22,091 nucleotides of DNA from Candidatus Micrarchaeia archaeon (GTDB lineage: Archaea; Micrarchaeota; Micrarchaeia; CAILAH01): contig JAVYLZ010000008.1 in assembly GCA_038740245.1 (NCBI GenBank), forward strand, positions 1 through 22,091. The letters run 5' to 3'. Each line of letters starts with the position of its first letter. Positions within the stretch are counted from its first letter, which is position 1. Shown here one piece after another: positions 3,508-20,061 of this stretch. A model generated the notes under the pieces. It was not told where the DNA came from, did not search any database, and saw only the letters and a list, made by a program, of their open reading frames with translations. The translations under genes were made by a program, and so were the position numbers.

Positions 3508-3515
3508 TTTTTAAT
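3508..3515 (+). promoter_or_regulatory. Putative TATA box for the leader plus tRNA-Ser transcript
   Basis: TTTTTAAT preceded by purine-rich CAAAG (BRE-like). It is the only TATA-like element between the permease and the tRNA and predicts a start near 3537. Confidence 0.5.
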
Positions 3516-3536
3516 CCCTTCACACCTAAATCGTGG

Positions 3537-3663
3537 TGTTGCCGATGGCAACAAGTTGTAGGCATCGCCTACAACCCATTTCGCGAATGCGAAAGTGCGG
3601 GGCCGCTGGAGCCAACAAAATACGGTCGCTGGGGGTTGCGAAGGGGCCGCTGGAGCCCCTTCG
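3537..3663 (+). repeat. Hairpin-packed palindromic element directly upstream of tRNA-Ser
   Basis: Hairpins TGTTGCC-GAT-GGCAACA (3537-3553), GTTGTAGGC-ATC-GCCTACAAC (3555-3575), TTTCGC-GAAT-GCGAAA (3579-3594) and CGAAGGGGC-CGCTGGA-GCCCCTTCG (3639-3663). 15-nt direct repeat GGGGCCGCTGGAGCC at 3599-3613 and 3643-3657. Confidence 0.8.
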
Positions 3664-3747
3664 GCCGAGGTGGCAGAATCCGGTAATGCGCCAGACTCGA
3701 GATCTGGTGCCCGCAAGGGCTTAGGAGTTCAAATCTCCTCCTCGGCG
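3664..3747 (+). tRNA. tRNA-Ser (anticodon CGA)
   Basis: Acceptor GCCGAGG/CCTCGGC plus G discriminator; anticodon arm CCAGA-CTCGAGA-TCTGG; long variable arm GCCC-GCAA-GGGC; T arm AGGAG-TTCAAAT-CTCCT; CCA not encoded. Confidence 0.97.
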
Positions 3748-3748
3748 C

Positions 3749-3762
3749 TTTTTTTTAAAAAA
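3749..3762. terminator. Probable bidirectional oligo-T terminator
   Basis: T8 follows tRNA-Ser on the plus strand; A6 (T6 on the minus strand) directly follows the stop of the convergent HD gene. Confidence 0.65.
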
Positions 3763-4920
3763 TCAGCGGTAAGAATCTATTATGGAGTGTGCCTTTTTTG
3801 AGACGGACTCACGTTTTTCCTCGGGGACTGCAATAAAGAGCATCCGCTTTTTCTCAGAGGCATCGCATATGGACTTGACAACTTCGGAAATTTCAGATAG
3901 CTCGCGCACCTCGGACTTGCCTTTTACTGAAACTGCAATTGGCTTGTAGCTGCTATACGTATAATAACTCACTATTTCCTCGCTTGCAAGGCCGCACGAT
4001 GCACATATCTCATCCTCAAGGCCTGAAAGGAATTTTTCATCAATGACATTTTTCAGTCGCTCTGGTATCTCATACCCCCGCAGGACAAGGGCTGCTTTGT
4101 AAAGCTTTCTTGTAACCAGGCGCGCGGCGAGAAGACCGGCCTGGGGGTGCTGCGCAAGGGATTGCAGGCATTCAATATCAGTCATCTCTGCAAGCTCGCG
4201 CGCACTGAATAGCCCGTCACTATACGCGAGGTCCATCGCCTTCCGCAGCATTGCTGATGAAATGCCAACCGCCTTGTGCTGGTACAGTGCAGAGAACATC
4301 ATGAACCGCGAAACCACAAGCGACTCTGCCGCCTCAATCCCCTTCTCGGAAATCAGCAGGTCGCCGTTATTGCCTATTGACATTGACGTGAGCAGGCGCT
4401 CATAATCAAGCCGGCCATACATAACCCCGGAATAATACGAGTCCCTCATAAGGTAGTCTATGCGGTCTATACCAAGCGTGCCTGTAAGCAGCTTTCCTTT
4501 GCCCCTGCCTGCAACACAGTCTGCAACAGCACGAGGGGAGATGCCCGCGCGCTCAAGTATGTCCGCCACGTGGCTCGTTCGTATCTTTTCCTCTGAAAAA
4601 TGCTCGTGTGAGAGCCCCTCCTTCTCAAATATATACTCGCTCTCATGCGAGAACGGCCCGTGGCCCACATCATGAAGCAGTGCTGCACACGCAATCTCGT
4701 GGTCCAAAGGCAGCTCGTTTATCTCGTGAAACCGCTTGGCAAGGAACAGTGTGCCAAGCGAATGCTCAAACCGCGTATGGTTTGCGCCGGGGTAGACCAA
4801 ATAACCAAGCGCAATCTGCTTGATATACCTGAGCCGCTGCATCTGCGGCGTATCCATAAGCTGGATTTCCAAATCAGAAAGCTTGACAAAGTTGTAAAGC
4901 GCATCCTTAACAAGCTTCAT
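3763..4920 (-). CDS. HD-domain phosphohydrolase, SAMHD1/dGTPase-like (COG1078 type)
   Basis: QRLRYIKQ...YLVYPGANHTRFEHSLG, LLHDVGHGPFSH, IDRIDYLMRD and R..MF..LY.HK motifs. Confidence 0.92.
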   Translation of the reverse strand: MKLVKDALYNFVKLSDLEIQLMDTPQMQRLRYIKQIALGYLVYPGANHTRFEHSLGTLFLAKRFHEINELPLDHEIACAALLHDVGHGPFSHESEYIFEKEGLSHEHFSEEKIRTSHVADILERAGISPRAVADCVAGRGKGKLLTGTLGIDRIDYLMRDSYYSGVMYGRLDYERLLTSMSIGNNGDLLISEKGIEAAESLVVSRFMMFSALYQHKAVGISSAMLRKAMDLAYSDGLFSARELAEMTDIECLQSLAQHPQAGLLAARLVTRKLYKAALVLRGYEIPERLKNVIDEKFLSGLEDEICASCGLASEEIVSYYTYSSYKPIAVSVKGKSEVRELSEISEVVKSICDASEKKRMLFIAVPEEKRESVSKKAHSIIDSYR

Positions 4921-5772
4921 TTAAACCAGCTCATACCGGCCCCGCGATTTCTCAATCACTTCAGATTCCTCAAGCATAAACGTAAGCACGCCCTTGCAAA
5001 GTAGCTCATCAAGCGATGTGCCCTTGCTGATCTCACCGAGTGTTGAGCGCTTATTTTCCTGAAGGAATTTTGAGATTACCGCGTGCGCCTGTGAAAACTT
5101 TTGCGAGGTAAATATGTAATATTTTGAGTCAAACCCGCGTATGCCGCGAACCTCACCCGCTTTTATCTTGTCACGCAGGCTGTACGACACGGATTTTGCA
5201 AGCTCATCATTATCCAGGGTTACGAACCCCTGCTTTTCAAGCTGTGACAGCAGCGCCTGCACGCCCTTGCCGGCCTCCACCGGTGACGGTGCGGCCGTCT
5301 GCTCAGGGGGACTGCGCACTGCAAGGCCATAAGCATCCTTTGGTATTGTGTAAACGCCTTCCTTGGAATACTTGCCCTCTTTGTAAACGCGCACCACACC
5401 CTTATCAATGAGCGTGCGCAGGCTCGCCTTCTCACTCTCAGAAAGCTTTGGGAGGATAGATGAGGGGGCACGCTGCTCAAACCGCACGGATGCCAGGCGC
5501 TTAAGAAGCGAAAGCTCATCTTCTGAGAGGGTGGGCGGGGCCTTCCCGCTTTTTTGCGGGGCATCCTCACCGCCAACCGGTGGCTCAAGTATGGAGCTCC
5601 GTATCTTCTGCCTTAAATGCTCCTTGAACGAGGATTTCCGTATTACGGCGAGCATCCCTTTTTCAAGTGTCACAACATAAACATCTTCACCCTCCTGAAA
5701 CCCTGCATTATGGAGCTGGCTTTTCTTTACTATTATCGCGCATGAATCGCTGTCATGCTCAACTATCTTCAT
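4921..5772 (-). CDS. Hypothetical protein, probable N-terminal AbrB/MazE-like domain and winged-helix domains
   Basis: 283 aa, tightly coupled to both neighbours (TAATG overlap at 5772, abutting at 4920/4921). N-terminus AIIVKK..L.NAGFQEGEDVYVV resembles a swapped-hairpin domain; C-terminus TLGEISKGTSLD...L..MLEESEVIEKSRGRYELV resembles a wHTH. Confidence 0.65.
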   Translation of the reverse strand: MKIVEHDSDSCAIIVKKSQLHNAGFQEGEDVYVVTLEKGMLAVIRKSSFKEHLRQKIRSSILEPPVGGEDAPQKSGKAPPTLSEDELSLLKRLASVRFEQRAPSSILPKLSESEKASLRTLIDKGVVRVYKEGKYSKEGVYTIPKDAYGLAVRSPPEQTAAPSPVEAGKGVQALLSQLEKQGFVTLDNDELAKSVSYSLRDKIKAGEVRGIRGFDSKYYIFTSQKFSQAHAVISKFLQENKRSTLGEISKGTSLDELLCKGVLTFMLEESEVIEKSRGRYELV

Positions 5773-6371
5773 TATACCATCTCCACAACTTCGCCGCTGC
5801 TCCCTTTTTGCGTAAACACGCGCGCTGTGAACACGTATACCTTGGCTGCAGGATTGTTTGGCTGCATGCCCGCCTTGTTGAACGCGCGTGCAAGCGCCCT
5901 CTCAGGTGTAAGTGACTGTGCACGTATCTCACGCGGCAAAAGCACGCCTGCGTTTATCGGGCCTTCAACATAAAGCCCATACACACGCTCATCCCCAACG
6001 GCGGACAGGTCCTTGTGCGGCCCGGAGACCTTCCGTATCAGCGTAAGCTCAAGCGTAATGCTGTCCAGCTCCTCAAGCGTAATGTGCCTGTAGCGGGGAT
6101 CCTCGCTGGCTGCAGCTATCGCACAATCTATGGCTGCAAGGTTAAGCTGCCGTGTAGTCCCAAGAAATCCCATACTGCCGCGTACGTTTCCTTCCTTGTC
6201 CAGCAGTGTGACGAACACACCGCACGCACCGGTTCGCGAGTTGCCTGCCGGTATCGGGTAAGATACCCTGCCCTGCGAAAGGAATACTGCAAGGGATTTG
6301 CGTATGCTGTCAAAAAGCGGCTCAATGTCCTGCTTAAGCAAAAGCCTTTCTGCGAACCTGCTGACCGCCAT
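5772..6371 (-). CDS. AMMECR1-domain protein
   Basis: GVFVTL....VRGSMGF, AIAAASEDPRY..I..EEL..I.LELTLI, GVLLP and KAG motifs. The usual LRGCIG appears as VRGSMG. Confidence 0.88.
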   Translation of the reverse strand: MAVSRFAERLLLKQDIEPLFDSIRKSLAVFLSQGRVSYPIPAGNSRTGACGVFVTLLDKEGNVRGSMGFLGTTRQLNLAAIDCAIAAASEDPRYRHITLEELDSITLELTLIRKVSGPHKDLSAVGDERVYGLYVEGPINAGVLLPREIRAQSLTPERALARAFNKAGMQPNNPAAKVYVFTARVFTQKGSSGEVVEMV

Positions 6372-6433
6372 GCTGTAAATTGGCCCGCAAACAATTAAAT
6401 ACGCAAAAAATTACTGTAAGCCATATTGGATAA

Positions 6434-6595
6434 TTAGCCTATAATCATCCTAAGCACTGCAACGCCCACTATTATAACGATTGCAGCGATTAGCACATGC
6501 TGCGGTTCAACCTGTATGCCGCCACCCGTGCCGACATCGCTGAACCTCATGAGCCCTGCGCTTGAAGCAGGTGTTGATATCCTGAACTTGCCCAT
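6434..6595 (-). CDS. secG: Preprotein translocase subunit Sec61beta (archaeal SecG/Secbeta); below the ORF-track length cutoff
   Basis: Manual translation gives MGKFRISTPASSAGLMRFSDVGTGGGIQVEPQHVLIAAIVIIVGVAVLRMIIG* (53 aa), with the SAGL.RF motif, I.V.P..V and a single C-terminal TM. Confidence 0.9.
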   Translation of the reverse strand: MGKFRISTPASSAGLMRFSDVGTGGGIQVEPQHVLIAAIVIIVGVAVLRMIIG

Positions 6596-6636
6596 AGCAA
6601 CCACTTGTATTAAAATGGGTAATAATAAAAAGGTAA

Positions 6637-8577
6637 TTACCTGTGGCCTTCCTTGGCACGCTTGAGCCGCTGCATCTTTTCCTCAAGCTCGCGCTTGAGC
6701 TCGTCAACCTCGCTTTCCATAAGGCTGATTTCGTCGGCTGGCTTTGGCTGCTCTCTGGGCTGCTCGGGCTTGCCGACAACTACTACCTCCTTCTGTGGCT
6801 GCGGCTGCGTTTCTGGCCCGGCTGCGCTCTTTTCATCGGGATCCGGTAGCTTGCCAGCCAGGAATGTGTACACCACAAAGAACAGTGCGGCCGCAAGTAT
6901 TATGCCGCCCACTACCAGCCAAAGCGGCATCGTTGCGCGGATTGCATCAGCGGGCGATATCTCGCCTGCAAACGCCGCAAATATTGTGCCAAGAATGCTG
7001 CGCTCAGGGCCCTGCGGCTGGCTTTCATTGCCCTCCTGCCCGCCACCAACTATTGGGACTATTGGCTTGGGCTGGCTGCCGTTTGTCGGTGCGCCCGGCT
7101 TTTCAACGGCCTCAAACTCTGTATCGCCCACTATGGCATACTTAGCTGAGACAATCTTGTACTTGCCTGCAACGTGCGGCGTAAACTTGGCCTCACCCTT
7201 CCTGCTGGTCACAAGCGATACCTTTGTACCGTCCGGCCATACAAGGGTGAGCACTATGCCCTTCAGCGGGTCGCTGTTTGAGTCAAGCACAGTGACTGTA
7301 ACCTCCTCACCCACATATCCTTTTGTGGGCATGATTACCTTAACAGTGCTTGGTGCGCCCGTATTGCTTGTTGTGTTGCCGCCTGCAGGGGGCACAGTGG
7401 GTGTTGACGGGGCGGTTGTGGTTGGGCTGCTTGTGTTTGTGCTGGTGGATGTGCCAGGCTTCGGCTTATCCTTGTCCTTTTCCTCTTCCTGCTTCGTCAC
7501 TGAAACTGTAATTGTATCGTTAAGTGCCGGGTTGGGATTGTATACCGCGGTTATGTGTGCAGTGCACGCACTTGACGGCGCCGTAAACGTGCTGCCACTG
7601 ATGGCACCGCACGTGGTTGTATATGCAACGTCATTTGTTGCCCAGCGGTTTGAATATGCATCCTCAAGGTACGATGAGAGCGTTGCCTGCTGGCCAACCC
7701 TTACCGAATTGCTGCTTGCAGTAAGGTCAAGGCGCTTGGGCTCGCCGTGCACAATAGTGAGGGTGGCACTCCCAGTCACACCCAGGAATGTTGCACGGAC
7801 GGTCCTGCTGCCCGCATTTGCTGCAATCAGGGCCGGCAGGTAAAGTGCGCCTGCATTGCCGGTATCCCATGTGGCAGACATTGTTACGTCCTCATCATGG
7901 CCGTCATTGTAATGCGCAACCGCGCTGAGCGTTGCCTCATCGCCTGCCGTGAGTGTGGTATCTGATGCCTGCACCGCAACTGAGACGACTACCGGCATCG
8001 TGTTTATGGGTGACGAATCAAGAGCAGGACTAAGCTCTGCTGAATCCGCAGGCCCAAGCGAGACAGCCTGAGAGTTTGAGACATAAAACGGCGCCTCAAA
8101 CAAGATGTCATAATCGCCAGGAGAAAGCTGCATTGTGCCGGAGCACCCTGAAACAGCCTTAACAACTTCATTGCCGTTCTGTATCGCCTTTACAATGCAG
8201 CCGCTGATTTGCTGGCCGCTTGCATTTTTCACTGTGAATGTAACCTGCGCGTTTGGAACAACCAAAAGTGCACCCATGTTAAGTGTTTCAGATTCACCGA
8301 CAGTTGCAGTGAAATAGCCGTTGCTGTAGCCAGCACTAATTGTACGAATTGTATACGAACCGGATACGCTGTTTACTGTGAACGTGCCGGTTTCGCTGGA
8401 CTGCACTTGCGCTGCAAGCACGTTTTCCGAATCATAAACGTATATGCTTGCACCGGAGACAGGTGCACCGGACTGCATGTCAGTAACTGTTCCGGTTATT
8501 GAGCCGGCAAACACTGCACTGAAAAATGAAACTAGCACAAGCAGTGCCATTGCAATGGTGTTTTTTGCGGTCATCAT
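6637..8577 (-). CDS. Membrane-anchored surface protein with carboxypeptidase-regulatory-like and Ig-like (Big_2) domains
   Basis: Signal peptide (ALLVLVSFFSAVFA); GSITGTVTD..SGAPVSGA.I repeat type; Big_2-like LSAVAHYNDG..EDVT..ATW; T/S/P-rich linker; TM LWLVVGGIILAAALFFVVYTFL; cytoplasmic coiled-coil tail. AGGTGA RBS precedes ATG 8577/8574. Confidence 0.82.
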   Translation of the reverse strand: MMTAKNTIAMALLVLVSFFSAVFAGSITGTVTDMQSGAPVSGASIYVYDSENVLAAQVQSSETGTFTVNSVSGSYTIRTISAGYSNGYFTATVGESETLNMGALLVVPNAQVTFTVKNASGQQISGCIVKAIQNGNEVVKAVSGCSGTMQLSPGDYDILFEAPFYVSNSQAVSLGPADSAELSPALDSSPINTMPVVVSVAVQASDTTLTAGDEATLSAVAHYNDGHDEDVTMSATWDTGNAGALYLPALIAANAGSRTVRATFLGVTGSATLTIVHGEPKRLDLTASSNSVRVGQQATLSSYLEDAYSNRWATNDVAYTTTCGAISGSTFTAPSSACTAHITAVYNPNPALNDTITVSVTKQEEEKDKDKPKPGTSTSTNTSSPTTTAPSTPTVPPAGGNTTSNTGAPSTVKVIMPTKGYVGEEVTVTVLDSNSDPLKGIVLTLVWPDGTKVSLVTSRKGEAKFTPHVAGKYKIVSAKYAIVGDTEFEAVEKPGAPTNGSQPKPIVPIVGGGQEGNESQPQGPERSILGTIFAAFAGEISPADAIRATMPLWLVVGGIILAAALFFVVYTFLAGKLPDPDEKSAAGPETQPQPQKEVVVVGKPEQPREQPKPADEISLMESEVDELKRELEEKMQRLKRAKEGHR

Positions 8578-8579
8578 GA

Positions 8580-11500
8580 TCACCTGTAAAGGACGAAGTC
8601 CTTCTGGGCTTCTCCGGCAGTCGGCACGTAGAGCGTGTGCATCGCCCTCATGTAGTCGGGGTGCGTCACCTCAATCACATAAACGCCCGCAGGCACAACA
8701 AACTCGTATGCACCGGTTGCGGAAGTTGATGTTGTTGAGACAAGCACGCCGTTCCTGTAGGCCTTCACTGTTGCGCCTGCAACTGCACTGCCTGTCTGGT
8801 TGGTCACCGTGCCGTATATCCTTGCCATCTTGGTAAGCACATAGTTCTTGCTTACCGTCTGGCCCGCCTCCACCTGTACCCCGTAGTCACGGGAGGTAAG
8901 GTAGCTGGGATAAGAGACATGCACATCGTAGGTGTCTGCAGGCAGTGCAAGCGAGTATGCACCGTCAGGTCCAGCTACTGTCTCAAACAGCACCGCGCCC
9001 TGCTTAAGCACCTGCACAACTGCACCGCCAAGCGCTGCACCACTCGCGTTTGTCACGGTGCCTTCAAGAGTTCCTGCCTGCTCAATCGCAAGAACGGTTA
9101 TCACGGTGGTGTTAGTAATAGCGCCAACCGATGCGTTAACCGTGCACTGGCCCTCGGTTGCAGATGTAAACTGAGTCGTTGCAACACCGCTGGCGTTGGT
9201 GGCTGCGGTGCCGGTGCTGAGTGTTCCGCAGTTTGATGTAAAGGTTACCTGCACATTCTCAAGCGGCTGCATGTTTTGATTGAGGACTGTTGCACGCACA
9301 GTGCTCTGCCCGCCTGCAAATATCGTGCTAGGGACAGCGGACACAAGCACCTGTGCAGGAGCGCTCGGCTGCTGCACAGCAACAAACTGCCTTGATATTA
9401 CCGTCTGCGTAAGCTGGCCGTTCACAACCGCTTCAACCGTAAACGTGCCTGACAGGCCTGCAACATCAACCGTTGCATCGCATACCACTGCATTGCAGGT
9501 GGTGACGGTATTGCCGTTTACACGAACAGCAATTGAGGAAATGCCTGTTGCGTCTGAGGCCTGCACACGAACGCTGAACGGTTCACTGTGCTCGCTCATC
9601 TCGGCTGGTGTGGGGTCAACAAATGCTGCTTCGGGCGGCACGTTGTCCACAAGCATATCAACGGTGCGCTCCGCAGTGTAGCCGTGCGTATCCGTTGCGG
9701 TTATGAGCACCTGAAGCTGCCCGTCAGGATAGTTTGCAGTGTTGACTGCGCGGGTAAAGTGTGCATTTGCGTGCTCAACCTCCTCCCCGCCGTTTATGTA
9801 TGTCCTTGCGCCTGCATAGTGCGCATCGTACACCACCGCCTCAACGACAACCATGCCGCTGAAGTATGGCCCTTCAGTTGCGCTTGGCGAAATCACTGTT
9901 ATAACCGGGGGCTCATCATCATATCCCGTCAGAACGACATCAATCACCTGTGTTGACTTTGGCATGAGCGGGAATGATACCACTGTCGGGTCATAATTGT
10001 CTGCACTCACACTGAGCGTATACATTGCCTCAGCGGGGACCGGCACTGTTATCTGGTAGTGCCCTTCCGCATTGGTTGTTGCTGCTGCCTGCTCGGTACC
10101 GCCAAGTGAAAGCACAACAAGTGCGTGCTCCACAGGGCTGCCTGAGCTGTCGTGCACATGCCCTTCAACTACCGAGTACGGCACGAGCACGAAATTTACG
10201 TTGTAATCGTGGTTCTTGTGTATCACAACTTCATAGCCTGTCGGCCGGTACCCGCTTGCAAGCGCCGTAATTGTGTATGGCCCGTCAAGGTCAACCTCGC
10301 TTATCAGGTAGTTGCCGTTTTCATCTGCGATCGCCGAATACCCGGTGCCTTCAATCACAACCTGTGCGCCGGCCACGGGGTTCATCTGTGTGTCCGTGAC
10401 CGTCCCGAATACGGTTGCATTGGGCACATATACCATGAATGAATCTATGTCAGTTATGGTGGTGCCCTCAACAGTCATTGAGTACATTACTGCGCCTTCC
10501 TTATCTCCGATATTGATTGTGACCGTTGCAATACCGGACTCGTTAGTCACTGCCACCGGGTTAAGCGCGGTCACGTATGCATCGCCTGCAAGGTAATTGA
10601 ACACCACGTTCACATTTGGCACTGCGTTGCCGTTCTTGTCAGTAACCTTTGCGTATACCGATTGCGTGGTCTCAACCGGCATCATATTCTCTGAGTATGC
10701 GTCAATTGACATTGGCTGGCCCGGCACAACAGTTACCTGCGCGGACTCGCTTATGCCGTTGTATGAAACCGTAACGGTGTCCGGCCCTGCCAGTACCGGC
10801 GCAAAGTAAATGCCATCCTGCGTTATGGTGCCGCGCTCGGCGGACCATACAAGTGCGGGATTCTGTATCTGGACGCCGTACTTGTCATACACGGCTGCGT
10901 TGAACTTGAGCATCTGCTCTGGCTGCAGCTCAACGGAAACTGGCTCAAGCACGATGTTTGCCGCTTCACCCGTGCGGACCCTCACGATTGCACTGCCGTT
11001 AACAGTGTATATCACAGGGTCTATTACGGGAATGCAGAAACCAATGCTGCAGTCAAACTTGGTAGAGTATATAGTGTATAATGCTGATGCAACTATCTCT
11101 GCCTCACCCGGGAAGTTGGCCTTGACGACACCGTTGCTGTCCACGGTTGCCACTGTGGTGTTACGTGAGGACCATATAATCTTCTGGCCGGGCAGCTCGT
11201 TCATGTTTGCATCGTAAACACGCGCGACAAGTGCCACGCTGTCGCCCACATCCTCAACTGTTTCCTGCGGTGTTATTATAACCTGGGCGGGCATGCCTGC
11301 AACCACAGTAAAGTGCCTTTCATCAACGCTGTCCGCAGGGCAGAACTTGAGGTTGTTTGCATATACCTTAATGCTCGCGGGGCCGGATTTCAGTCCTGTT
11401 GGGAATGAAACGCGCGCTATGCCGTCACTCCCTGATGTAAACGTGTATTCCGTTGTCTTGCCCTCTGGAGAGGCATACTCAACGGATACACCTGCTGCCT

Positions 11501-12233
11501 TAGGATTGCCGAACTCGTCTGTAACATTAACGCTGAACGTTGCGTTTGAGCCGGCCGCATATGCCTGCTGCACCGACCCGATTATAGCGGACTGCGTGCA
11601 CATGCCCGGCTCAACTGTTATCTGTGCGGTAGCATCCCTGTCAAGGTAAACTGCGGTGAGCGTAACCTTGCCTGCCTTTGTGCCTGAGAACATGACCTCA
11701 TTGGCGCCAAGCCAGCCCGGCGTGGTGAGCGTGCCGAACGACGGGTCGGAAAGCGAGAATGAGGCCTTTATGTCCGCGGGGCTGCCGGCAGCATCAAGTG
11801 CGATGAGCCTGAACGACGTGCTGCGGCCAGCCTGCACGGTGGCCTGCTGCGGTGAGAGTGTGAACGATTTTATGTTTGAGGCACAGTATTCTGACGGCTC
11901 AAGCGTCACCTTTGCCTGCGCCGTGCCGGCTTTTACCGTATAAACGCCGCGCGGCTGTGCTGCGCCAAACTTGAACACGCACTTGCCTTTTGAGTCGGTC
12001 TTGCAGCCAAGCCCTGTGTCCACGCCGTTTGCCATATACACCTTAACCTGTATGCCCGGCGCATAAGAGACTGTTACGTCACAAGCGCGCGGCACAACTG
12101 GCGGTGTAACCTGCAGGGCAGGGTCCGCCTTTAGCGGCACGGCAACAGTGTCACCTGGTATTGTGACCACGAATGCCGAGACCGATGCAAACAGCAGGAG
12201 CATGCCTGCGAGTATTGCCATTTTTGTATCCAT
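8580..12233 (-). CDS. Large secreted Ig-repeat protein (Big_2/Big_1 invasin/intimin-type, Big_3-like and four carboxypeptidase-regulatory-like domains)
   Basis: Signal peptide; WSSRNTTVATVDSNGVVKA (Big_2); AKVTDKNGNAVPNVNVVF...TNESGIATVT and ATVLNQNMQPLENVQVTF...TNASGVATTQF (Big_1); repeated GTVT...G..V.GA.V units; no C-terminal TM; GGTGA RBS. Confidence 0.85.
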   Translation of the reverse strand: MDTKMAILAGMLLLFASVSAFVVTIPGDTVAVPLKADPALQVTPPVVPRACDVTVSYAPGIQVKVYMANGVDTGLGCKTDSKGKCVFKFGAAQPRGVYTVKAGTAQAKVTLEPSEYCASNIKSFTLSPQQATVQAGRSTSFRLIALDAAGSPADIKASFSLSDPSFGTLTTPGWLGANEVMFSGTKAGKVTLTAVYLDRDATAQITVEPGMCTQSAIIGSVQQAYAAGSNATFSVNVTDEFGNPKAAGVSVEYASPEGKTTEYTFTSGSDGIARVSFPTGLKSGPASIKVYANNLKFCPADSVDERHFTVVAGMPAQVIITPQETVEDVGDSVALVARVYDANMNELPGQKIIWSSRNTTVATVDSNGVVKANFPGEAEIVASALYTIYSTKFDCSIGFCIPVIDPVIYTVNGSAIVRVRTGEAANIVLEPVSVELQPEQMLKFNAAVYDKYGVQIQNPALVWSAERGTITQDGIYFAPVLAGPDTVTVSYNGISESAQVTVVPGQPMSIDAYSENMMPVETTQSVYAKVTDKNGNAVPNVNVVFNYLAGDAYVTALNPVAVTNESGIATVTINIGDKEGAVMYSMTVEGTTITDIDSFMVYVPNATVFGTVTDTQMNPVAGAQVVIEGTGYSAIADENGNYLISEVDLDGPYTITALASGYRPTGYEVVIHKNHDYNVNFVLVPYSVVEGHVHDSSGSPVEHALVVLSLGGTEQAAATTNAEGHYQITVPVPAEAMYTLSVSADNYDPTVVSFPLMPKSTQVIDVVLTGYDDEPPVITVISPSATEGPYFSGMVVVEAVVYDAHYAGARTYINGGEEVEHANAHFTRAVNTANYPDGQLQVLITATDTHGYTAERTVDMLVDNVPPEAAFVDPTPAEMSEHSEPFSVRVQASDATGISSIAVRVNGNTVTTCNAVVCDATVDVAGLSGTFTVEAVVNGQLTQTVISRQFVAVQQPSAPAQVLVSAVPSTIFAGGQSTVRATVLNQNMQPLENVQVTFTSNCGTLSTGTAATNASGVATTQFTSATEGQCTVNASVGAITNTTVITVLAIEQAGTLEGTVTNASGAALGGAVVQVLKQGAVLFETVAGPDGAYSLALPADTYDVHVSYPSYLTSRDYGVQVEAGQTVSKNYVLTKMARIYGTVTNQTGSAVAGATVKAYRNGVLVSTTSTSATGAYEFVVPAGVYVIEVTHPDYMRAMHTLYVPTAGEAQKDFVLYR

Positions 12234-12239
12234 CTTCGC

Positions 12240-14894
12240 TCACCACACAATTAATATTCCAAGCTCTGGGACAAGTGCCCAGTTATTGCCTACACTGCGG
12301 TATTCCGCACCAAGACGCAGCGTAAATACATCCTTCATGTTTACGGCCTTAACACTGCCGAACAGCAGGTAGCCGCTTTCAAACCCTTGCGAACTTGAAA
12401 TGCTGCCCATATAGGTTGCGCCGTCCCTCTCATATGTTCCAATGCCCGGCACAAACAGCTGGCTGTATTCCGAACCAAGTATTGCGCCGCCGCCAAAGTT
12501 CAGGTACTTCCAAGTAAGCGAGGCGCCAACCACTGCGGATGCGTTCCACGCCATATTGGGGCTCGCAGAGGCATACCTGCCGCCTGCACCTACAACAAGG
12601 TTGAGGTATGCCGGCTTGTCATACCACAGCGGAAGCTGCAGCAGCACACTGCCCTCGGTGCACTCAAACACTGAATTTCCGTCCTTCTTCTGCGAGTATA
12701 TGCCCGCAGAGCGCACTATCAGCGGGTACTTGCTGGCTGTATCCCATACATTTAATGAATATGACAGCGGCGCCCTCTCGGTAAACGTGCCGCTTACATT
12801 AAAGTTCATTACATCGCTTGTTACAAGGAACGTGCCGCCAACCATTGCATTCTCGCTTTTCCTGGTGCTCTTTGAAAGGTTAAGCAATGCGGCGATGCGC
12901 CAGTCCCTCCCGTCCTTGTCTTCCAAAAGCAGGCTTGGGCCAACACTCAATAATGCATTATGATTGTAGTACCCTTCAGTGTACTCGTGGCCGTACCCTT
13001 TGTATGCACCGCCCAGTGTAAAGCCTATTTTTGCAGGGTTAATATGAATATATACTGGGGCAGTTGCATCCCAGCCAAACAGCTGTTTACTTCCAATAGA
13101 TGATTGCGAGAGGTATCCTATCCCGCCAACTTCCAGTGCACCCTTAACTGCCTCCTTTTGGGTATCCTCGCGTGCGGGGTCAGGTGCAGCAACCGGTACG
13201 GCTTCAGTCTCAGCGTGTGCAATCAATATATCTGCAATCTCATCACGTTTGGACTCAAGACGGCCAACCGTATCAATAACTTTGTCTCTAAGGGCTTCTG
13301 GGTCGGTGCACCGGCGGCACTCATCTATCTTCTCAAGTATCTTAGCACCATCATTACCTGCAAGCGTAACCTTCTCATTGAACCTTTCAATTATCTTGTT
13401 GCCCATCTGCAAAAAGCCTTCCTTCGTGTTGGGCTCTTCACCGAAAGCGTCTATTACTATCTTTTCGGATTTTCCTTTGCCGCGGCTATACTGTGCAACC
13501 AGCTGGTTGATCTGCTCGTTAACCGCATTAATCTCGTTGTTTTGCGCTGCCTCAAATGAATCAACAAGCTCAAACACTTCTTTTGAAGTGGGGGCGTTTT
13601 CATCTGCAATCTTTTCATTGATTAGTGAGGAATACTCCTCCTTCTTCTGGATTACGTATACATCAAGTTGTGAAAGCTGGTCAAGCATATATGTAATTAC
13701 CATGCGGTCCCCCTCAGAGCTCTTATTATAGTCGTCAAGCTGCTTTTGTATCTGCTGCACCTCTTCAATCATTTGCTTGTGCAGCTTCTCTACACGCTCA
13801 AGCAGCTTGGGACCTTCTACAGAAACAAGGTCTCCGCGAAGTATTTCCTCAAGCGCAAAGTCAAGTTCTGAAATGCCGTTGCGCGTGCTGGCTTCAAGCC
13901 CCTCTATGCTCTTGGCAATCACTGCGAGATTGTCACCGGCCTTTTCCTTCTCTGCAAGGATCTGCTCAACACGCTCCTTGTTCGGAAGCTCTGCCACGCA
14001 TCCCTTGCATTCAGTCTTGTACTCTACTGCTGCGGGCTCAGTGCTCGCTTTTTGTGCATCAGCCTCCAGAGCGGCCTTCAGCTGTTCCTCGGGAACACGC
14101 TTCTCCTCAATTATCTCGGCAATGGTCTTCTCCTCTGGCGCACCGCTTAAGCCCTTGCGCATCTGCGCATACTCCTCATTAGACATTGCATAAACAGTTG
14201 TCTCCTGCACCTTTGGCGGCTTTGGCAGCTTGTGAATAACCATCTTGCCAGGCGGCTCAACAAACCGCTGCTCAGTGGCTATTGTGCCGTCCGCCATCTG
14301 ATAATATATGGGCGTATAATTCCTTTTCTGGTGTTCTGCCGCGGGTTTTGCCTTTTGTGCATCCTTGCCCTCCGTTGCGCTTGGTGCCTTACCCTTCGCA
14401 ACAGGGGCTGATTTCTGCTTCGGCTTGGGGTTCTTGAGGTTATACTGGTAATCGCACTCAAGCTGGGCCAAAATCTCATCAGAGACCTTAGGGAGCAGCT
14501 TAGGCGGCAGCCCATTCTTGCGTATGATTTCTGCGGATTTGGGGGTCACATATACCGCACGAAGGTCCTCGTATGAAAGCTTGCCTTTCTTATACTGCGC
14601 ATATGCGCGCTCAAGCTCATAATCAGTGCCTATTTTCACTTTCTTTTGGACACCTTCAAACTGGACCTCGCTTGTTGAGCACTTTTGCGGCCCCTGCTGT
14701 GCTGGCATCTCCTGCGCGGATGCGCCGGCGACGGTGCATGCCAACGCAAGTCCAAGCATTATCTTGTAAACGCCTGGCGGCAGCCTGAACCTGCGTTGCA
14801 CCTGCTCTTCGGGCGCGCTTAGTTTCAGCTGACTGTTATCACCGGAAACCTGTGCCTGCCGTGAGATTCCTTTAAGCATATATGAATTAACCAT
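12240..14894 (-). CDS. Hypothetical exported protein: extended signal-like N-terminus, coiled-coil middle, C-terminal beta-strand-rich (beta-barrel-like) domain
   Basis: Long ORF. Start placed at ATG 14894 (MVNSY..., ~884 aa) because a TATA-like element lies at 14938-14945. Hydrophobic IMLGLALACTVAGASA-QE begins near residue 45. E/K/Q-rich helical middle. Last ~300 aa consist of Gly/aromatic amphipathic strands ending in W. Confidence 0.75.
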   Translation of the reverse strand: MVNSYMLKGISRQAQVSGDNSQLKLSAPEEQVQRRFRLPPGVYKIMLGLALACTVAGASAQEMPAQQGPQKCSTSEVQFEGVQKKVKIGTDYELERAYAQYKKGKLSYEDLRAVYVTPKSAEIIRKNGLPPKLLPKVSDEILAQLECDYQYNLKNPKPKQKSAPVAKGKAPSATEGKDAQKAKPAAEHQKRNYTPIYYQMADGTIATEQRFVEPPGKMVIHKLPKPPKVQETTVYAMSNEEYAQMRKGLSGAPEEKTIAEIIEEKRVPEEQLKAALEADAQKASTEPAAVEYKTECKGCVAELPNKERVEQILAEKEKAGDNLAVIAKSIEGLEASTRNGISELDFALEEILRGDLVSVEGPKLLERVEKLHKQMIEEVQQIQKQLDDYNKSSEGDRMVITYMLDQLSQLDVYVIQKKEEYSSLINEKIADENAPTSKEVFELVDSFEAAQNNEINAVNEQINQLVAQYSRGKGKSEKIVIDAFGEEPNTKEGFLQMGNKIIERFNEKVTLAGNDGAKILEKIDECRRCTDPEALRDKVIDTVGRLESKRDEIADILIAHAETEAVPVAAPDPAREDTQKEAVKGALEVGGIGYLSQSSIGSKQLFGWDATAPVYIHINPAKIGFTLGGAYKGYGHEYTEGYYNHNALLSVGPSLLLEDKDGRDWRIAALLNLSKSTRKSENAMVGGTFLVTSDVMNFNVSGTFTERAPLSYSLNVWDTASKYPLIVRSAGIYSQKKDGNSVFECTEGSVLLQLPLWYDKPAYLNLVVGAGGRYASASPNMAWNASAVVGASLTWKYLNFGGGAILGSEYSQLFVPGIGTYERDGATYMGSISSSQGFESGYLLFGSVKAVNMKDVFTLRLGAEYRSVGNNWALVPELGILIVW

Positions 14895-14937
14895 AGTATA
14901 CCCCCAACGTTGGTAAGGGATTTTGAGTGTTCCGGGG

Positions 14938-14945
14938 TTTATATA
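14938..14945 (-). promoter_or_regulatory. Putative TATA box for the surface-protein operon
   Basis: TATATAAA on the minus strand ~44 nt upstream of ATG 14894, in the divergent intergenic region. Confidence 0.5.
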
Positions 14946-14988
14946 CATTTCTATTATGACATGTAGGCGGCGGAGCCAAAAAATGAGC

Positions 14989-14996
14989 ATATATAA
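14989..14996 (+). promoter_or_regulatory. TATA box for tRNA-Lys
   Basis: ATATATAA ending ~25 nt upstream of tRNA position 1, with an A-rich BRE-like stretch upstream. Confidence 0.65.
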
Positions 14997-15082
14997 GGAT
15001 ATGTGCCCATAATTGCCTTGCGGGCCCGTAGCTCAGCTTGGCTAGAGCGGCGGACTTTTAATCCGAAGGTCACGGGTTCAAA

Positions 15083-15277
15083 GCAGGGACCCAGCGGTCC
15101 AGCATGCGCTTTGCGCATGTGGCCTGCAAACATTCTGTTTGCACGGCCCCGCACCCCTTGCAACCAAGCAAGTGGGGGCGGAGCCCCCTTGGGCTGCCAA
15201 AAAATACCTCGCACATGTGGGGGTTTGGGCGGTGGCGGACTAAGGGGGCGGAGCCCCCTTGGGCTGCCATGTGAAAA
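15083..15277 (+). other. BHB-type tRNA intron, 195 nt, highly structured
   Basis: Canonical BHB: central helix TTCA(15077-80)/TGAA(15272-75), 3-nt bulges AAG(15081-83) and AAT(15276-78), flanked by the T stem and CA-g-GG/CC-a-TG. Cleavage after the second base of each bulge gives exactly the mature T-loop. Confidence 0.9.
15174..15269 (+). repeat. 26-nt perfect direct repeat inside the intron
   Basis: GGGGGCGGAGCCCCCTTGGGCTGCCA at 15174-15199 and 15244-15269; each copy contains the hairpin GGGGGC-GGA-GCCCCC. Confidence 0.95.
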
Positions 15278-15379
15278 TCCCGTCGGGCCCGTTTTTAATA
15301 AAAATTGCCTTCTTTTAAGGCAAATGTTGCGCTTCGGGCTGTTTAAATACTAGTTGCACAGGAGGAGATGCTAAAGGCA

Positions 15380-15387
15380 TTTATAAA
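15380..15387 (+). promoter_or_regulatory. TATA box for the pilin/VirB4-like operon
   Basis: TTTATAAA preceded by AAAGG, ~31 nt upstream of ATG 15419, which has a GGTGGTG RBS. Confidence 0.7.
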
Positions 15388-15418
15388 TTATACCGCTGAT
15401 TACATAAAAGGTGGTGTA

Positions 15419-15760
15419 ATGAATAGATTCGCGATTGTTGCACTGTTTGTGCTTACGTTCTCTGCAATGACCTATGCAGGAGTTGGCGAAACGCTTAATA
15501 ACCTCTGCTTCCAGGCGAGGGGTCTTATACCGATAGTTGCATTTGTCCTAATCGTGTTCGCAGGTCTTGTGTATGCCGCGGGGCAGGTGCTGGGTGCTGA
15601 GATGCGTTCCAGGACCAACGTGTGGGCGACAACCATGGTCATTGGCGCGATAATCGGCCTGATATTTACGTTCAGCGCACCTGCCATAATCAGCCTTGTG
15701 GCTGGGGCATTTGGGATGGATCTTGAGACCTACGAGTACACGTGTGAAACGCTGCTGTAG
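15419..15760 (+). CDS. VirB2/TrbC-like pilin (CedA1/TedC-like)
   Basis: 113 aa from ATG 15419. Signal peptide ending TYA, an amphipathic helix, then two hydrophobic helices (IPIVAFVLIVFAGLVYAAG; MVIGAIIGLIFTFSAPAII) joined by a short basic loop (EMRSR). First gene of an operon containing a VirB4-like ATPase. Confidence 0.7.
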   Translation: MNRFAIVALFVLTFSAMTYAGVGETLNNLCFQARGLIPIVAFVLIVFAGLVYAAGQVLGAEMRSRTNVWATTMVIGAIIGLIFTFSAPAIISLVAGAFGMDLETYEYTCETLL

Positions 15761-15769
15761 AGGGATGCG

Positions 15770-16531
15770 ATGGAGCTGAACGAGACGCTTGCGTACGGTG
15801 CGCTCGGAGCGGGCGGGGTATTCCTGCTGTTCGCCAGCCAGTTTGCCCCCATTGCCCTGCTTTCAATAATCTGTGCACTGCTCGCATACATGTTTTACAG
15901 GTGGGGCAACATCTACGTGCCATTCCTGGTATTCCAAAAAAGGGAAATACAGGTACCATACGCCTTTGAGATTTCGCCTGCAGAGGATGCTGTATTCAAG
16001 CAGGTTGGGGATGATTATATAGCAACAGTATTCCTCAATTTGGATATCTACGAAACGATGACCAACAAGAACCAAGATGAGATAAACGATTATGCGCATT
16101 ACTTTGAGCGCTCAATATCAAGCGTCAAGGACCCCATAAAAATATCTGCAATACTCTACGAGAGGGACATGGGGCGGTATGCTAAGGCAATTGAGGAGAG
16201 GAAAGCTGCGCTTGAGGATAAGATTGCTGCAGAGAGACAGAAGAAAAAGGCGGACCCGCGCACAATTGAAGTGCTTGAGCGCGAAAAGCTTATGTGGGAG
16301 CGGCGGCTTGAGGGGCTTTACAAGTCGTCTGAGCGGCCTCGTGCGGTTGAATACATAATTGCAACTTCCGGGTTTGGGCCGTCACGCGACGCCGCGCTCA
16401 GCGCTGCAAAAACAAGGGCACGGGAGATTAAGGCAACGTTTGCGGGCGGCATGTCCGTCAATGTTGATGAGCTTACACGGAACAGAATGAGGTCCTGCTT
16501 TGAGTGGGAATTCCTTTCCCCAGAATGGTGA
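15770..16531 (+). CDS. Membrane protein, two N-terminal TMs plus cytoplasmic alpha/beta domain with coiled-coil insert (VirB3/VirB4-N-terminal-like)
   Basis: 253 aa; hydrophobic hairpin at residues ~8-45; clearly paralogous to the next gene; located between the pilin and the ATPase. Confidence 0.6.
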   Translation: MELNETLAYGALGAGGVFLLFASQFAPIALLSIICALLAYMFYRWGNIYVPFLVFQKREIQVPYAFEISPAEDAVFKQVGDDYIATVFLNLDIYETMTNKNQDEINDYAHYFERSISSVKDPIKISAILYERDMGRYAKAIEERKAALEDKIAAERQKKKADPRTIEVLEREKLMWERRLEGLYKSSERPRAVEYIIATSGFGPSRDAALSAAKTRAREIKATFAGGMSVNVDELTRNRMRSCFEWEFLSPEW

Positions 16532-16535
16532 GATT

Positions 16536-17336
16536 GTGCCAAGGATACCCAAGCTGTATATGATTGCCGGCGTGGTCTTTGTAACAGCAATTGCGCTGTT
16601 TATACTGTTCCAGGCAGGAATAGTGATATTTGCAATAGGCCTGCTTCTTGCGCTGCTGGTTGGTGCATTCATTTACTTCGGGCATTTCATCACGCCGCTC
16701 ATAACACGCATAGCTGGCATAACCTACCGAAAAGGTGAGTATATTTTCCCGCCGGGGCAGGATGTGATAGTGAAAAAGAGCGGGGATAAGTATATGGCCG
16801 CCAAATTCATGCTGGTAAACATACCAGAGCGCGAGGAGGTTTCAGGAAAGCGCGAGGAGCGGTCCGAAGTGTACCTGAAGGACTTTGAGGCCGCAGTGAG
16901 CGCGATACACGTGCCTGTGAAATTCAATATGCTGCTCGCGACCAAGGACATAAGCGCCTACAGGGAAAGCATACAGTCCAAGGTATACGAGTACGGACTC
17001 AGGATAAAGCGTGAGATGGAAAAGGCCGAGCCCGACGTGATAAAGCTTGACAAGTGGCAGAAGGAGAAGGAGTTTAACGAGAACCTTCTCAAGCGGCTTG
17101 CAAGCGGCGTGAAGCCGATGGCCTGCGTGATGTATGTTATGACATTGGCCAAGGGCATAACGCAAAAGGAAGCCATTGACAAGGTAAAGGCCAATGCCAA
17201 GGAGATCAAGGCGGTCATCTCAAACAACCTCAACGCCGAGGTAACCGACCTTATTGGCGAGGATGCAGAGCTCTGCCTTGAGTGGGAGCGTGCGCTGCCC
17301 ACAAGCTATGAAGAGCTTGTTGCAGCTACGGATTAG
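16536..17336 (+). CDS. Membrane protein, paralog of the upstream gene (VirB3/VirB4-N-terminal-like)
   Basis: GTG 16536 follows a GGTGA RBS and is preferred over TTG 16500. Two TMs; aligns with the upstream protein through to the shared C.EWE motif. Confidence 0.6.
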   Translation: MPRIPKLYMIAGVVFVTAIALFILFQAGIVIFAIGLLLALLVGAFIYFGHFITPLITRIAGITYRKGEYIFPPGQDVIVKKSGDKYMAAKFMLVNIPEREEVSGKREERSEVYLKDFEAAVSAIHVPVKFNMLLATKDISAYRESIQSKVYEYGLRIKREMEKAEPDVIKLDKWQKEKEFNENLLKRLASGVKPMACVMYVMTLAKGITQKEAIDKVKANAKEIKAVISNNLNAEVTDLIGEDAELCLEWERALPTSYEELVAATD

Positions 17337-17345
17337 GTGTATGCG

Positions 17346-18914: not shown

Positions 18915-19281
18915 GGAGAGGGGCAAGCACCTGAGAGGCGCATCAAAAAACAGTGTGTGCATACTTTGCGAGAAGCTGGGAGCTCGCGGCAGGGCCGTTA
19001 AAGAGGACTATTTAATAGCGGCGATACGCGCAGTGAAGCGGCTCTTCAAGATGGAAGCCGGCAATAAGCTGGTCGTGTGCGATGAGTGCTATCCTGCCTA
19101 CAGTAAGAAGCGCGGGGAGTTTGAGAAAGGCCTGCTCATCTACGGTATAATCGGCATGGCAATCATGCTGCTGCTTCTTATTATGAGCTTCTCGCTTGGG
19201 AGCCTGATTTCCGGATTGCTTATGCTGTTGTTCCTGCTCATACTTGCACACATCAAGTACACGCCTAAAGTAGAGGGTTGA
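18907..19281 (+). CDS. Small membrane protein with CxxC...CxxC putative zinc site and C-terminal TM hairpin
   Basis: CILC and CDEC motifs, two hydrophobic segments, GGAGGT RBS; overlaps the ATPase stop. Confidence 0.72.
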   Translation: MIKERGKHLRGASKNSVCILCEKLGARGRAVKEDYLIAAIRAVKRLFKMEAGNKLVVCDECYPAYSKKRGEFEKGLLIYGIIGMAIMLLLLIMSFSLGSLISGLLMLLFLLILAHIKYTPKVEG

Positions 19282-19284
19282 AAA

Positions 19285-20043
19285 ATGGCTGAAACTGAGA
19301 GAACTGAAGCGCAGCCGGCACGGCTTGACCTGGTGCCAGAGCCGATGGGCGCATCATTCAAGTTTGGTGCCAGGCGCAAGGTTGATGCTGCACAGCTGGC
19401 CAAAATGCTCTCAAGCATACCCGATATTGAGGTTGTTGAGCAAAAGGGCACTGTCTGCATGATAAAGGTTGACAGCAGGGATATTGACGGTATGCCTTAC
19501 CTGTTCACGATTGTGTATTTCAATGAGAATAACATTGAGGTTCTCTACACCATTACCCCGGAAATAAGCCTTAGGAAGCGGCGGCTTGAGCTGCTCAGGT
19601 TTCTTGTTAATACGGTGACAATGCTTTCAGATGCCTATGACATTGACCTGCCAAGCTTTATGCAGCTGCTTGATGTTTTCCTCGCGGACATTAAAGAATT
19701 TGCAACACTTGACTATGAGAAGCTGTTCACGCGGTATGATGCAGCCCTTGCGCGGCTTGAGGAGGCAAAGAAAAAGATAGAGCGGCTTACTGAGAGCAAC
19801 GAGCGGCTGAGCAAGGATGTGCTTGAGATTACAAACCAGCGCAACGAGCTTAGGCTCAAGCTTGATGAGCTTGAGAAGTATTCTGACGATGCGCTCATGA
19901 TAAAGGTGCAGGAGTGGATAAAGGAGCACAACAATGAGATTAACATAGGTGATTTCTGCAAGCTTTACAAAGTCAATGAAAGCCGTGTTGAGCAGATACT
20001 CAACAAGATGGTGCGCGAAGGGTATCTTGAAGTAAGGCGCTGA
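19285..20043 (+). CDS. Hypothetical protein: N-terminal alpha/beta domain, coiled coil, C-terminal winged helix
   Basis: 252 aa; heptad pattern YDAALARLEEAKKKIERLTESNERLSKDVLEITNQRNELRLKLDELEK; C-terminal INIGDFCKLYKVNESRVEQILNKMVREGYL. Confidence 0.75.
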   Translation: MAETERTEAQPARLDLVPEPMGASFKFGARRKVDAAQLAKMLSSIPDIEVVEQKGTVCMIKVDSRDIDGMPYLFTIVYFNENNIEVLYTITPEISLRKRRLELLRFLVNTVTMLSDAYDIDLPSFMQLLDVFLADIKEFATLDYEKLFTRYDAALARLEEAKKKIERLTESNERLSKDVLEITNQRNELRLKLDELEKYSDDALMIKVQEWIKEHNNEINIGDFCKLYKVNESRVEQILNKMVREGYLEVRR

Positions 20044-20061
20044 GCCGCAGGTGTTCACAGG

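Follow-up and report, generated by a model that had tools for sequence, protein, structure and literature searches.

What are the hairpin clusters that two tRNA genes of a Micrarchaeota genome carry, one in a leader and the other in an intron, and how did they come to be there? The genes lie in a window of 22,091 nucleotides, the whole stretch of contig JAVYLZ010000008.1 that was analysed, and a preliminary description had proposed that their palindromes belong to a REP-like family of small mobile elements targeting tRNA genes. The observation itself is confirmed and is richer than first described, every coordinate proving correct on re-check. The tRNA-Ser leader and the tRNA-Lys intron are mosaics of dispersed repeats of this genome (G000).

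The intronless tRNA-Ser(CGA) gene occupies 3664-3748 on the forward strand. About 25 nt upstream of its repeat cluster is a TATA-like T/A run (3508-3514, forward strand), which from its sequence is likely to be a promoter with a predicted start site, and 3537-3663 would then be a transcribed 5′ leader. A sigma-70 promoter scan was set aside, as that model is not applicable to archaea. The tRNA-Lys(UUU) gene spans 15022-15292 and was missed by ARAGORN, Rfam detecting its 5′ part only. Its 5′ exon (tRNA positions 1-59; 15022-15082, forward strand) and 3′ exon (positions 60-73 plus one base; 15278-15292, forward strand) are separated by a 195-nt intron (15083-15277) in the T-loop, between positions 59 and 60. 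By sequence reading, 15077-15085 and 15270-15278 form a strict hBHBh′ motif, in which TTCA (15077-15080) pairs with TGAA (15272-15275) to leave the bulges AA/G and AA/T; the 3′ end of the intron (15270-15277, forward strand) completes this bulge-helix-bulge. Hairpin repeats within tRNA genes cause standard tools to overlook most tRNAs of this genome, ARAGORN making 13 calls against 42 curated genes.

The mosaics are built from three elements. E1 consists of a tail, a G-tract and a GC hairpin; E2 is a twin hairpin of about 50 nt, precisely inserted in the E1 stem; and E3 sits nested within E2. In the leader, all on the forward strand, E3 comes first (3536-3576), as two hairpins with 3-nt loops in the E2 linker. 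Its nesting is judged from an intergenic locus (G000:C3:32299-32390) where E3 lies between the halves of an otherwise intact E2. There follows the 3′ half of an E2 (3577-3600), its second hairpin, with the 5′ half lost, identified by alignment and by a match to model R1 (3568-3600; 18.2 bits, E = 5e-4). The next segment (3601-3613), previously termed repeat copy 1, is the remnant of a first, truncated E1 hairpin, and the layout around it recurs in the leader of a tRNA-Phe on contig C11. A complete E1 unit (3614-3663) closes the leader with an A-rich tail containing AAAATAC, a G-tract (3631-3637) and a 9-bp hairpin (3639-3663), the final base of which adjoins tRNA +1.

The intron opens with an E1 on the reverse strand (15083-15172), its end hairpin (15083-15152) directly abutting the 5′ splice site and followed by the G-tract (15153-15157) and a small hairpin (15157-15172). 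A full-length E2 twin hairpin (15099-15146, reverse strand) lies in the G-run of the end hairpin without any duplication; E2 is antisense here, and its leader copy is sense. This E1 also has an A-T pair at 15089/15098, a compensatory change relative to the C-G pair of four sister copies. Beyond it is E1b (15174-15269, forward strand), an E1-related unit in which a 26-nt direct repeat (15174-15199 and 15244-15269) encloses an AAAATAC tail and a G-tract; E1b also occurs within introns on contigs C4, C5, C16, C32 and C34. Neither leader nor intron is a single element, each comprising several nested units in opposite orientations. The inverted 11-mer common to both is where it had been placed (3595-3605 and 15144-15154), but was rejected as a homologous motif because the leader copy spans the end of E2 and the intron copy its start.

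E2 has subterminal hairpins at both ends and shows precise excision, without target duplication. Its removal in silico restores a host stem of 7-9 bp at at least 10 of 15 sites, and an empty twin of the E2-filled E1 hairpin (G000:C3:4254-4275) stands in tandem with a filled copy (4300-4369) inside one intron. Covariation in E2 (85% paired; 0 of 500 shuffles) is only suggestive of a paired structure, a +1 slide giving an equal score. The hairpin end of E1 is preserved, whereas its tail ends are ragged, and the element forms tandem arrays.

These resemblances exceed chance. Leader and intron align locally with a score of 38 against a shuffle mean of 21.8, a value matched in 2 of 1000 shuffles, and two real seeds recruited 16 genome segments in a first round when 200 shuffled seeds gave 3 matches in total. 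Folding z-scores were -6.5 for the tRNA-Lys precursor as RNA and -4.7 for the leader as DNA. A crude early hairpin scan returned 24 matches against 5-8 in Markov controls, and a second returned 12 and missed known copies; both were replaced by later scans. Within the window, the E2 model matches these two places only.

Genome-wide, 42 hairpin matches were found, few next to the numbers of bacterial REPs, and about 38 of them are non-coding. The copies are strongly concentrated in the discarded parts of tRNA transcripts: 35 of the 38 non-coding matches lie in tRNA leaders, introns or trailers, which make up 19.7% of non-coding DNA, a count in which copies are not independent, many descending from few events. 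The proposed multi-copy, non-autonomous hairpin family exists, as does its association with tRNA genes, but a family confined to tRNA genes was rejected, as copies also occur at the RNase P RNA, between genes and, in frame, within a phosphomannomutase gene. E1 also adjoins stop codons.

The placement of E1 is often exact to the base. Its hairpin end falls at tRNA +1 in 7 of 7 detected leaders among the 42 curated tRNA genes, and in 7 of 7 leaders of relatives once two false in-array tRNA calls are dropped; in eight genes it falls at the T-loop 59/60 5′ splice site. Overall, the hairpin end of E1 occurs, on either strand, at +1, at one of the junctions 37/38 and 59/60, or at the last base of helix P1 of RNase P RNA. 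There are exceptions: the offset is 2-6 nt in some T-loop cases and 1-5 nt in some anticodon introns. With a stricter script, 14 of 22 T-loop candidates, some of them mis-parsed, yielded no hairpin, and that of the window's own intron was scored as lying 2 nt from the junction. In trailers, duplications of the 3′ exon begin at position 59 or 60 in 10 of 17 loci and elsewhere in 7; here the tRNA is intact and selection cannot fix the position of the junction. These duplications continue into the genomic trailer rather than CCA, and one is at an intronless T-loop. A fixed 3′ end, a ragged 5′ end and a variable target duplication characterise E1 in trailers and self-insertions, but not in most leaders, where insertion occurred without target duplication.

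Comparison of orthologous sites reveals both filled and empty states. The tRNA-Lys intron is about 55 nt long in one relative (G001) and absent from another (G005), and all 3 of the 3 relatives in which phosphomannomutase could be read lack the insert. With 93-98% identity to the introns of four other tRNA genes, the T-loop intron was recently copied as a whole among five genes. It is likely that the repeats point to how archaeal tRNA genes gain or enlarge introns. In three sequencing runs of a single study, the DNA contigs contain a rearranged variant, with a 70-nt go-back within the intron in one contig; these may derive from sister copies and form no part of the evidence.

The explanation we prefer, to which we would give an even chance, is that leader and intron have accumulated small non-coding hairpin repeats, present at many places in this genome, which probably spread as selfish DNA by one-ended copy-in. 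It might be asked whether true mobility is needed at all. Replication slippage, template switching and gene conversion between similar tRNA genes could by themselves generate and spread such repeats, with deletions ratcheting hairpins to essential borders and some being kept as terminators or stabilisers. Many tandem duplications, quasi-palindrome corrections and the intron common to five tRNA genes accord with this, and the copies next to stop codons are explicable by a simple deletion ratchet. Yet E2 is precisely placed within several distinct host hairpins, within a protein gene and, in other archaea, within RNase P RNA, without the flanking homology that conversion would need, and the 59/60 junctions in trailers are not under selection. 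Of the explanations considered, this one seems the least probable.

If the repeats do move, an enzyme might be supplied in trans. One reading, which follows the preliminary description, is that they are REP/IS200-type elements mobilised by a Y1 HUH nuclease and lasting only at sites cleared by processing. The precise insertion and removal of E2 without duplication, and tandem arrays resembling the amplification model outlined for BIMEs (PMC3333891), are consistent with it, and the repeats qualify as REP/BIME in being imperfect palindromes of 20-65 nt in many copies. GNA loops on the element strand fit it too. They belong to a set of signs at the DNA level that favour the preferred reading: both polarities occur, and on the element strand G-T exceeds A-C by 15 to 5 (p = 0.04), GNA triloops exceed their complement by 8 to 2 and GNRA loops by 6 to 0; the bias in loops and G-T tracks the element strand, not the transcript. 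Against the REP reading, none of the 9 family genomes, which are 61-93% complete, contained a match to Y1_Tnp (PF01797), compared with 41 of 151 in the class, and a custom profile at maximum sensitivity found no match in G000. In the class, Y1 genes are bordered by ordinary ends of the IS200 type that do not resemble E1 or E2, and E2 ends are absent from the flanks shown for 21 of 30 fetched Y1 loci. A GTAG, CGTC or TGTC tag stands at the foot of 1 of 42 hairpins. The four bases before E2 are NGGG in 13 of 15 G000 copies but comprise 13 different tetramers in 21 archaeal GTDB matches, leaving no fixed target tetranucleotide. Neither the REP label nor an IS200/IS605 identity is supported, and the unselected 59/60 junctions would go unexplained; we consider this route quite unlikely.

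Searches for other enzymes were likewise negative or uninformative. Tyrosine recombinase (PF00589) was found in 0 of 5 genomes, and an integrase att site was rejected on this ground and because most duplications start at 59/60 and omit the 7-nt loop. Y2_Tnp gave 0 of 5, in a search without any positive control match. Cas1 occurs in 1 of 9 family genomes, G000, with a Cas12f-like gene, also only there, within a CRISPR locus; neither the repeats nor the rest of the genome are matched by its spacers. No autonomous, ORF-carrying version was seen among 23 GTDB matches or viral contigs; a viral match inside a terminase-like ORF was judged to be chance, and two further patterns matched none. The class-wide E2 search scored 40 candidates per genome and so gives a lower bound, and in a metagenome scan 2 of 46 matches passed a perfect-hairpin test, most being chance. 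Rfam covariance models recovered tRNA, 5S and RNase P only, besides a weak Clostridiales-2 match (E 0.19) far below its gathering score.

Junctions at RNA ends invite an RNA route, in which ends made by RNase P or the splicing endonuclease either become joined to repeat RNA through a ligase such as RtcB or act as points for template jumps, and an occasional reverse transcriptase, for example from a diversity-generating retroelement (DGR), writes the chimera back. This route matches the junctions equally well, whether at +1, 37/38 and 59/60 or at the end of RNase P RNA, and RtcB is present in 5 of 5 genomes. E1 resembles a product of target-primed reverse transcription in that its 3′ end is fixed, its 5′ end ragged and the duplication variable. 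Of the 7 trailer duplications that begin at 60, 6 belong to genes carrying an intron at 59/60, and those at 59 are in three intronless genes, a start that would match a stop at m1A58. However, RVT_1 was not found in G000; it occurs in 1 of 9 family genomes, where it looks like a DGR enzyme, and across the class in 19 of 151. In addition, both polarities are represented, 7 of 9 tRNAs with E1 leaders retain their introns (by inspection), the duplicated exons lack CCA, and some copies are intergenic or within a coding gene. We regard this route as unlikely.

In the preferred reading, copy-in would join the terminal hairpin of the repeat to the exact edge of a tRNA segment. A free DNA 3′ end would arise at such borders by a nick or stall, perhaps where the single-stranded gene folds like its own RNA or where processed RNA re-pairs with the gene; from there a host polymerase would copy E1, beginning at the hairpin end, and rejoin close by, at times with a duplication of 13-26 nt. 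The movement of E2 would be a separate process, in which a single strand is precisely excised and inserted into the purine runs of other hairpins. The cargo would be removed by RNase P, a broad-specificity splicing endonuclease and RtcB, and for that reason be tolerated. RNase P RNA is present in 9 of 9 family genomes, and the splicing endonuclease in 8 of 9 (8 of 8 relatives), with three-unit-sized frames of 385-446 aa in seven relatives; it was not found in this assembly, which is 81% complete. The earlier suggestion that the repeats persist where processing discards them accounts for their survival, but leaves unexplained why hairpin ends are flush with cut sites.

Tiny elements of comparable kind include the yeast mitochondrial GC clusters and the Rickettsia palindromic elements, the latter inserting in frame in proteins. 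Fungal mitochondrial double-hairpin elements, as presented in PMC10085805, are likewise tiny, two-hairpinned, probably mobile, without known enzyme, and found between genes and in RNA genes; those described here are archaeal, nested and flush with processing sites, a comparison of form made without testing sequence relationship. Bacterial REP/BIME with TnpA-REP (RAYT) share short imperfect GC palindromes, mosaics, tandem arrays, strand-specific structure and insertion into other palindromes and occasionally genes (PMC3333891, PMC3733652, PMC6006769). They are scattered between genes, whereas the present repeats concentrate at RNA cut sites, form three nested classes and have neither a GTAG/CGTC tag nor a Y1 gene in the family. 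PMC6006769 reports IS200-type Y1, and not TnpA-REP, for archaea. Non-autonomous, peel-and-paste derivatives of IS200/IS605 resemble E2 in their two hairpins, precise ends and lack of target duplication (PMC6006769, PMC5027513), but E2 has no conserved target tetranucleotide or TnpA and the IS200 ends of the class differ.

Closer in setting is the tRNA intron transposition of Thermoproteales (Fujishima et al. 2010, as summarised in PMC4090602), where near-identical introns occupy one position in unrelated tRNA genes. The introns here are long and made of repeats found outside introns too, and a DNA source for introns is thereby offered. ARMAN-2 likewise has 59/60 introns, a heavily interrupted tRNA set and a three-unit-sized epsilon2 endonuclease, and the available text of PMC3239211 describes no repeat family or leader insertions. 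A literature search found no description of these repeats, supplements and most subscription journals lying outside its coverage.

It is an open question how introns enter the tRNA genes of archaea, and a 2026 preprint on Asgard archaea that tested copying, mobile elements and reverse transcription reports no general route (10.64898/2026.10.13.758758). The repeats are a concrete donor sequence inside and outside introns, and empty and filled sites, single-base junctions and five-gene copying make intron gain testable. They also form, in archaea with small genomes, a counterpart of the REP mosaics of bacteria that has neither tags nor a transposase. A bolder possibility, which we hold only tentatively, is that E1 is an enzyme-less archaeal mini-element written into DNA at RNA-processing ends, the RNase P site and splice sites. 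If so, the tRNA maturation machinery would itself mark the target of E1, and new or longer introns would be born from a repeat.

The genome to which the window belongs (as contig C8) is 688 kb long and 81% complete. The tRNA-Ser(CGA) gene (3664-3748) follows a leader at 3537-3663, and the tRNA-Lys(UUU) gene (15022-15292) carries a 195-nt intron at 59/60 (15083-15277), at whose junctions a strict bulge-helix-bulge can be read. All coordinates in the preliminary description proved correct on re-checking, and the kinship it proposed between leader and intron is borne out by a mutual resemblance above that of 998 of 1000 shuffles. Both regions fold better than shuffles. The unit named E1 here comprises, in order, a tail (often a small hairpin plus AAAATAC or TACC), a G-tract and a GC hairpin of 7-9 bp. 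E2 is a twin hairpin of 47-52 nt, running from CC to GG, which is sense in the leader and antisense in the intron; in the leader it is interrupted by a further element, E3 (3536-3576). The minus strand at 6637-14990 encodes three large surface-type proteins, two with Ig-like repeats; one, of 916 aa, has no Pfam match, as is true of most genes in a cluster at 15368-22089 encoding a pilin-like small protein, membrane proteins and a HerA/TraG-type ATPase (17337-18914).

Iterative BLAST against the genome with exons masked found 24 segments, 12 intronic, six in leaders and six elsewhere (one in a real gene, two overlapping doubtful ORFs, three weak), against three matches in total for 200 shuffled seeds. 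The Ser leader has one counterpart in intergenic sequence (C3:32326-32427; 93% identity over 102 nt) and another in the tRNA-Phe leader (89% over 87 nt). The Lys intron matches T-loop introns of two tRNA-Gly genes over its own length (95% and 93% identity) and those of tRNA-Arg and tRNA-Ile over 86-90 nt (97-98%). At the end of the leader's intergenic counterpart (C3:32276-32500), 10 nt match the T-arm of tRNA-Ser and may be what is left of a tRNA copy since deleted.

Scanning the whole genome for hairpins yielded 42 matches: 26 in introns, seven in leaders, two in trailers, three in other non-coding DNA and four in coding DNA. The proposed association with tRNA genes stands as a strong enrichment, 35 of the 38 non-coding matches (copies that are not independent) lying in 19.7% of the non-coding DNA. 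It is not exclusive, however. One E1 ends at the last paired base of RNase P RNA, and a phosphomannomutase-like gene (C29:1846-1953; L031) carries E1 and E2 in frame at its start, before the FGTNG motif; this insert adds ~26 codons and is absent from all three readable orthologues of the four fetched. A second, T/A-rich hairpin family, which also fills many tRNA introns, forms an insert of ~50 nt in 5S rRNA (C22, about 856-1023; L296) and a similar one in RNase P RNA (C1:5452-5801; L196).

The strict E2 model matches in three of eight family relatives and in two weak cases among 149 genomes of the class, and one E1 pattern gives several matches per genome almost exclusively within this family. 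Other archaea have looser relatives of E2, two of them inside RNase P RNA (flanks read by eye); 19 of 23 stretches with the twin-hairpin motif in GTDB records are archaeal, the titled records being for the most part Micrarchaeota or unnamed archaea. Related units are present in the Ser(CGA) leaders of two relatives (G001, G002). The tRNA-Lys intron is ~55 nt in G001 and absent from G005, with other short introns elsewhere. A GC-rich archaeal metagenome contig (L291:600-700) has an E1-like hairpin/G-tract/hairpin unit joined to a tRNA 3' half, which suggests similar elements beyond this lineage.

The main new point is that the E1 hairpin ends flush with RNA cut sites. Among 42 curated tRNA genes, all seven leader hairpins detected within 40 nt lie at distance 0 from +1, and two further leaders look flush by eye; in relatives seven of seven are flush, a count that omits two false tRNA calls within arrays, at distances 3 and 8. 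In T-loop introns, the end of the antisense hairpin coincides with the 5' splice site in eight genes of this genome and two of relatives, with exceptions at -1, 2, 3 and 6 nt; a stricter parse detected no such hairpin at 14 of 22 T-loop candidates. In anticodon introns, inspection placed the ends within 0-1 nt in about seven cases; two others were displaced by 5 nt. Of 17 loci at which the trailer duplicates the tRNA 3' exon, 10 have a duplicate that begins at position 59 or 60, and in the others it begins at 56, 62, 63 (two) and 65 (three); the 17 include orthologues, and only some of the trailer units are E1. The tRNA gene itself remains intact, and selection cannot fix this junction. E1 may either create T-loop introns or enter short pre-existing ones, since many short introns at 59/60 in the class lack E1.

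Exon-repeating trailers (C2:42800, C5:2700, C26:230-600, C34:2745, C40:5850; L093, L099, L187, L215, L229) stand behind several different hairpin units, some with an inverted copy too. Two tRNA-Leu leaders (C15:573-630, C10:18840-18897) contain a hairpin unit 44 nt long, with a duplication of the tRNA's initial 13 nt flanking it.

The E2 model R1, trained on 12 copies that it necessarily matches, recovers 14 full copies and a split one from the genome, as well as a truncated one in the leader. In this genome E2 is preceded by a purine-rich run, mostly within the 5' arm of an E1 hairpin, and after its removal in silico at least 10 of 15 sites regain the host stem. Filled and empty copies are adjacent in the tRNA-Ile intron. 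Paired positions of E2 covary, a result weakened by a slide control. Arrays are polar: the tRNA-proximal unit is complete, and upstream units, often carrying E2, end abruptly in the 3' arm of the hairpin. An origin of the repeats by slippage and conversion alone is quite unlikely. There is about an even chance for a joint account, in which host enzymes would copy E1 one-endedly, as DNA, into the borders of tRNA segments, E2 would move separately by precise hopping, and whole introns would be copied between tRNA genes; this would be the chemistry behind the observed family, nesting, enrichment and junction positions. The repeat cargo would be tolerated, being removed by RNA processing, the machinery for which was found in the family (RNase P RNA in 9/9, splicing endonuclease in 8/9, RtcB in 5/5).

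Both orientations relative to the transcript occur. On the element strand of 66 distinct hairpins, G-T exceeds A-C (15 versus 5), GNA triloops their complement (8 versus 2) and GNRA its complement (6 versus 0), and the G-T of the window's antisense E1 becomes A-C in precursor tRNA. It is therefore the structure of the element strand that matters, whether this is single-stranded DNA or a separate RNA, the counts fitting either. A route through RNA ligation or reverse transcription, for which a stop at m1A58 and the hallmarks of target-primed reverse transcription are relevant background, is doubtful. A reverse transcriptase, DGR-like, was found in one of nine incomplete family genomes; its locus (L208; G007:C26), where the gene adjoins a stretch resembling a template repeat and a target gene that matches is present, is consistent with a diversity-generating retroelement.

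A true HUH system is quite unlikely: Y1 transposase was found in none of the nine incomplete family assemblies, and the suggested REP or IS200 identity was not upheld by membership tests. Tyrosine recombinase (PF00589) was found in none of five incomplete family genomes (G000, G001, G004, G006, G007), which is unusual for archaea, and Cas1 in one of nine. These searches of the family yielded no mobilising enzyme. The Cas1 locus (G000:C1:57841-61360; L243, L249) also has a Cas12f/Cas14-like gene of ~583 aa and a seven-repeat CRISPR array.

Rickettsia palindromic elements and yeast GC clusters serve as comparison systems. In their working the repeats resemble REP/BIME mosaics (PMC3333891, PMC3733652) and the double-hairpin elements of mitochondria (PMC10085805), yet they fail membership tests for REP and for IS200 elements (PMC6006769). 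Further comparisons draw on PMC3239211, PMC4090602, PMC3293823 and an Asgard preprint (10.64898/2026.10.13.758758). No description of these repeats turned up in the literature searched; they are a real variant of selfish palindromic DNA, apparently one not described before. Such selfish repeats bear directly on the gain of tRNA introns in archaea.
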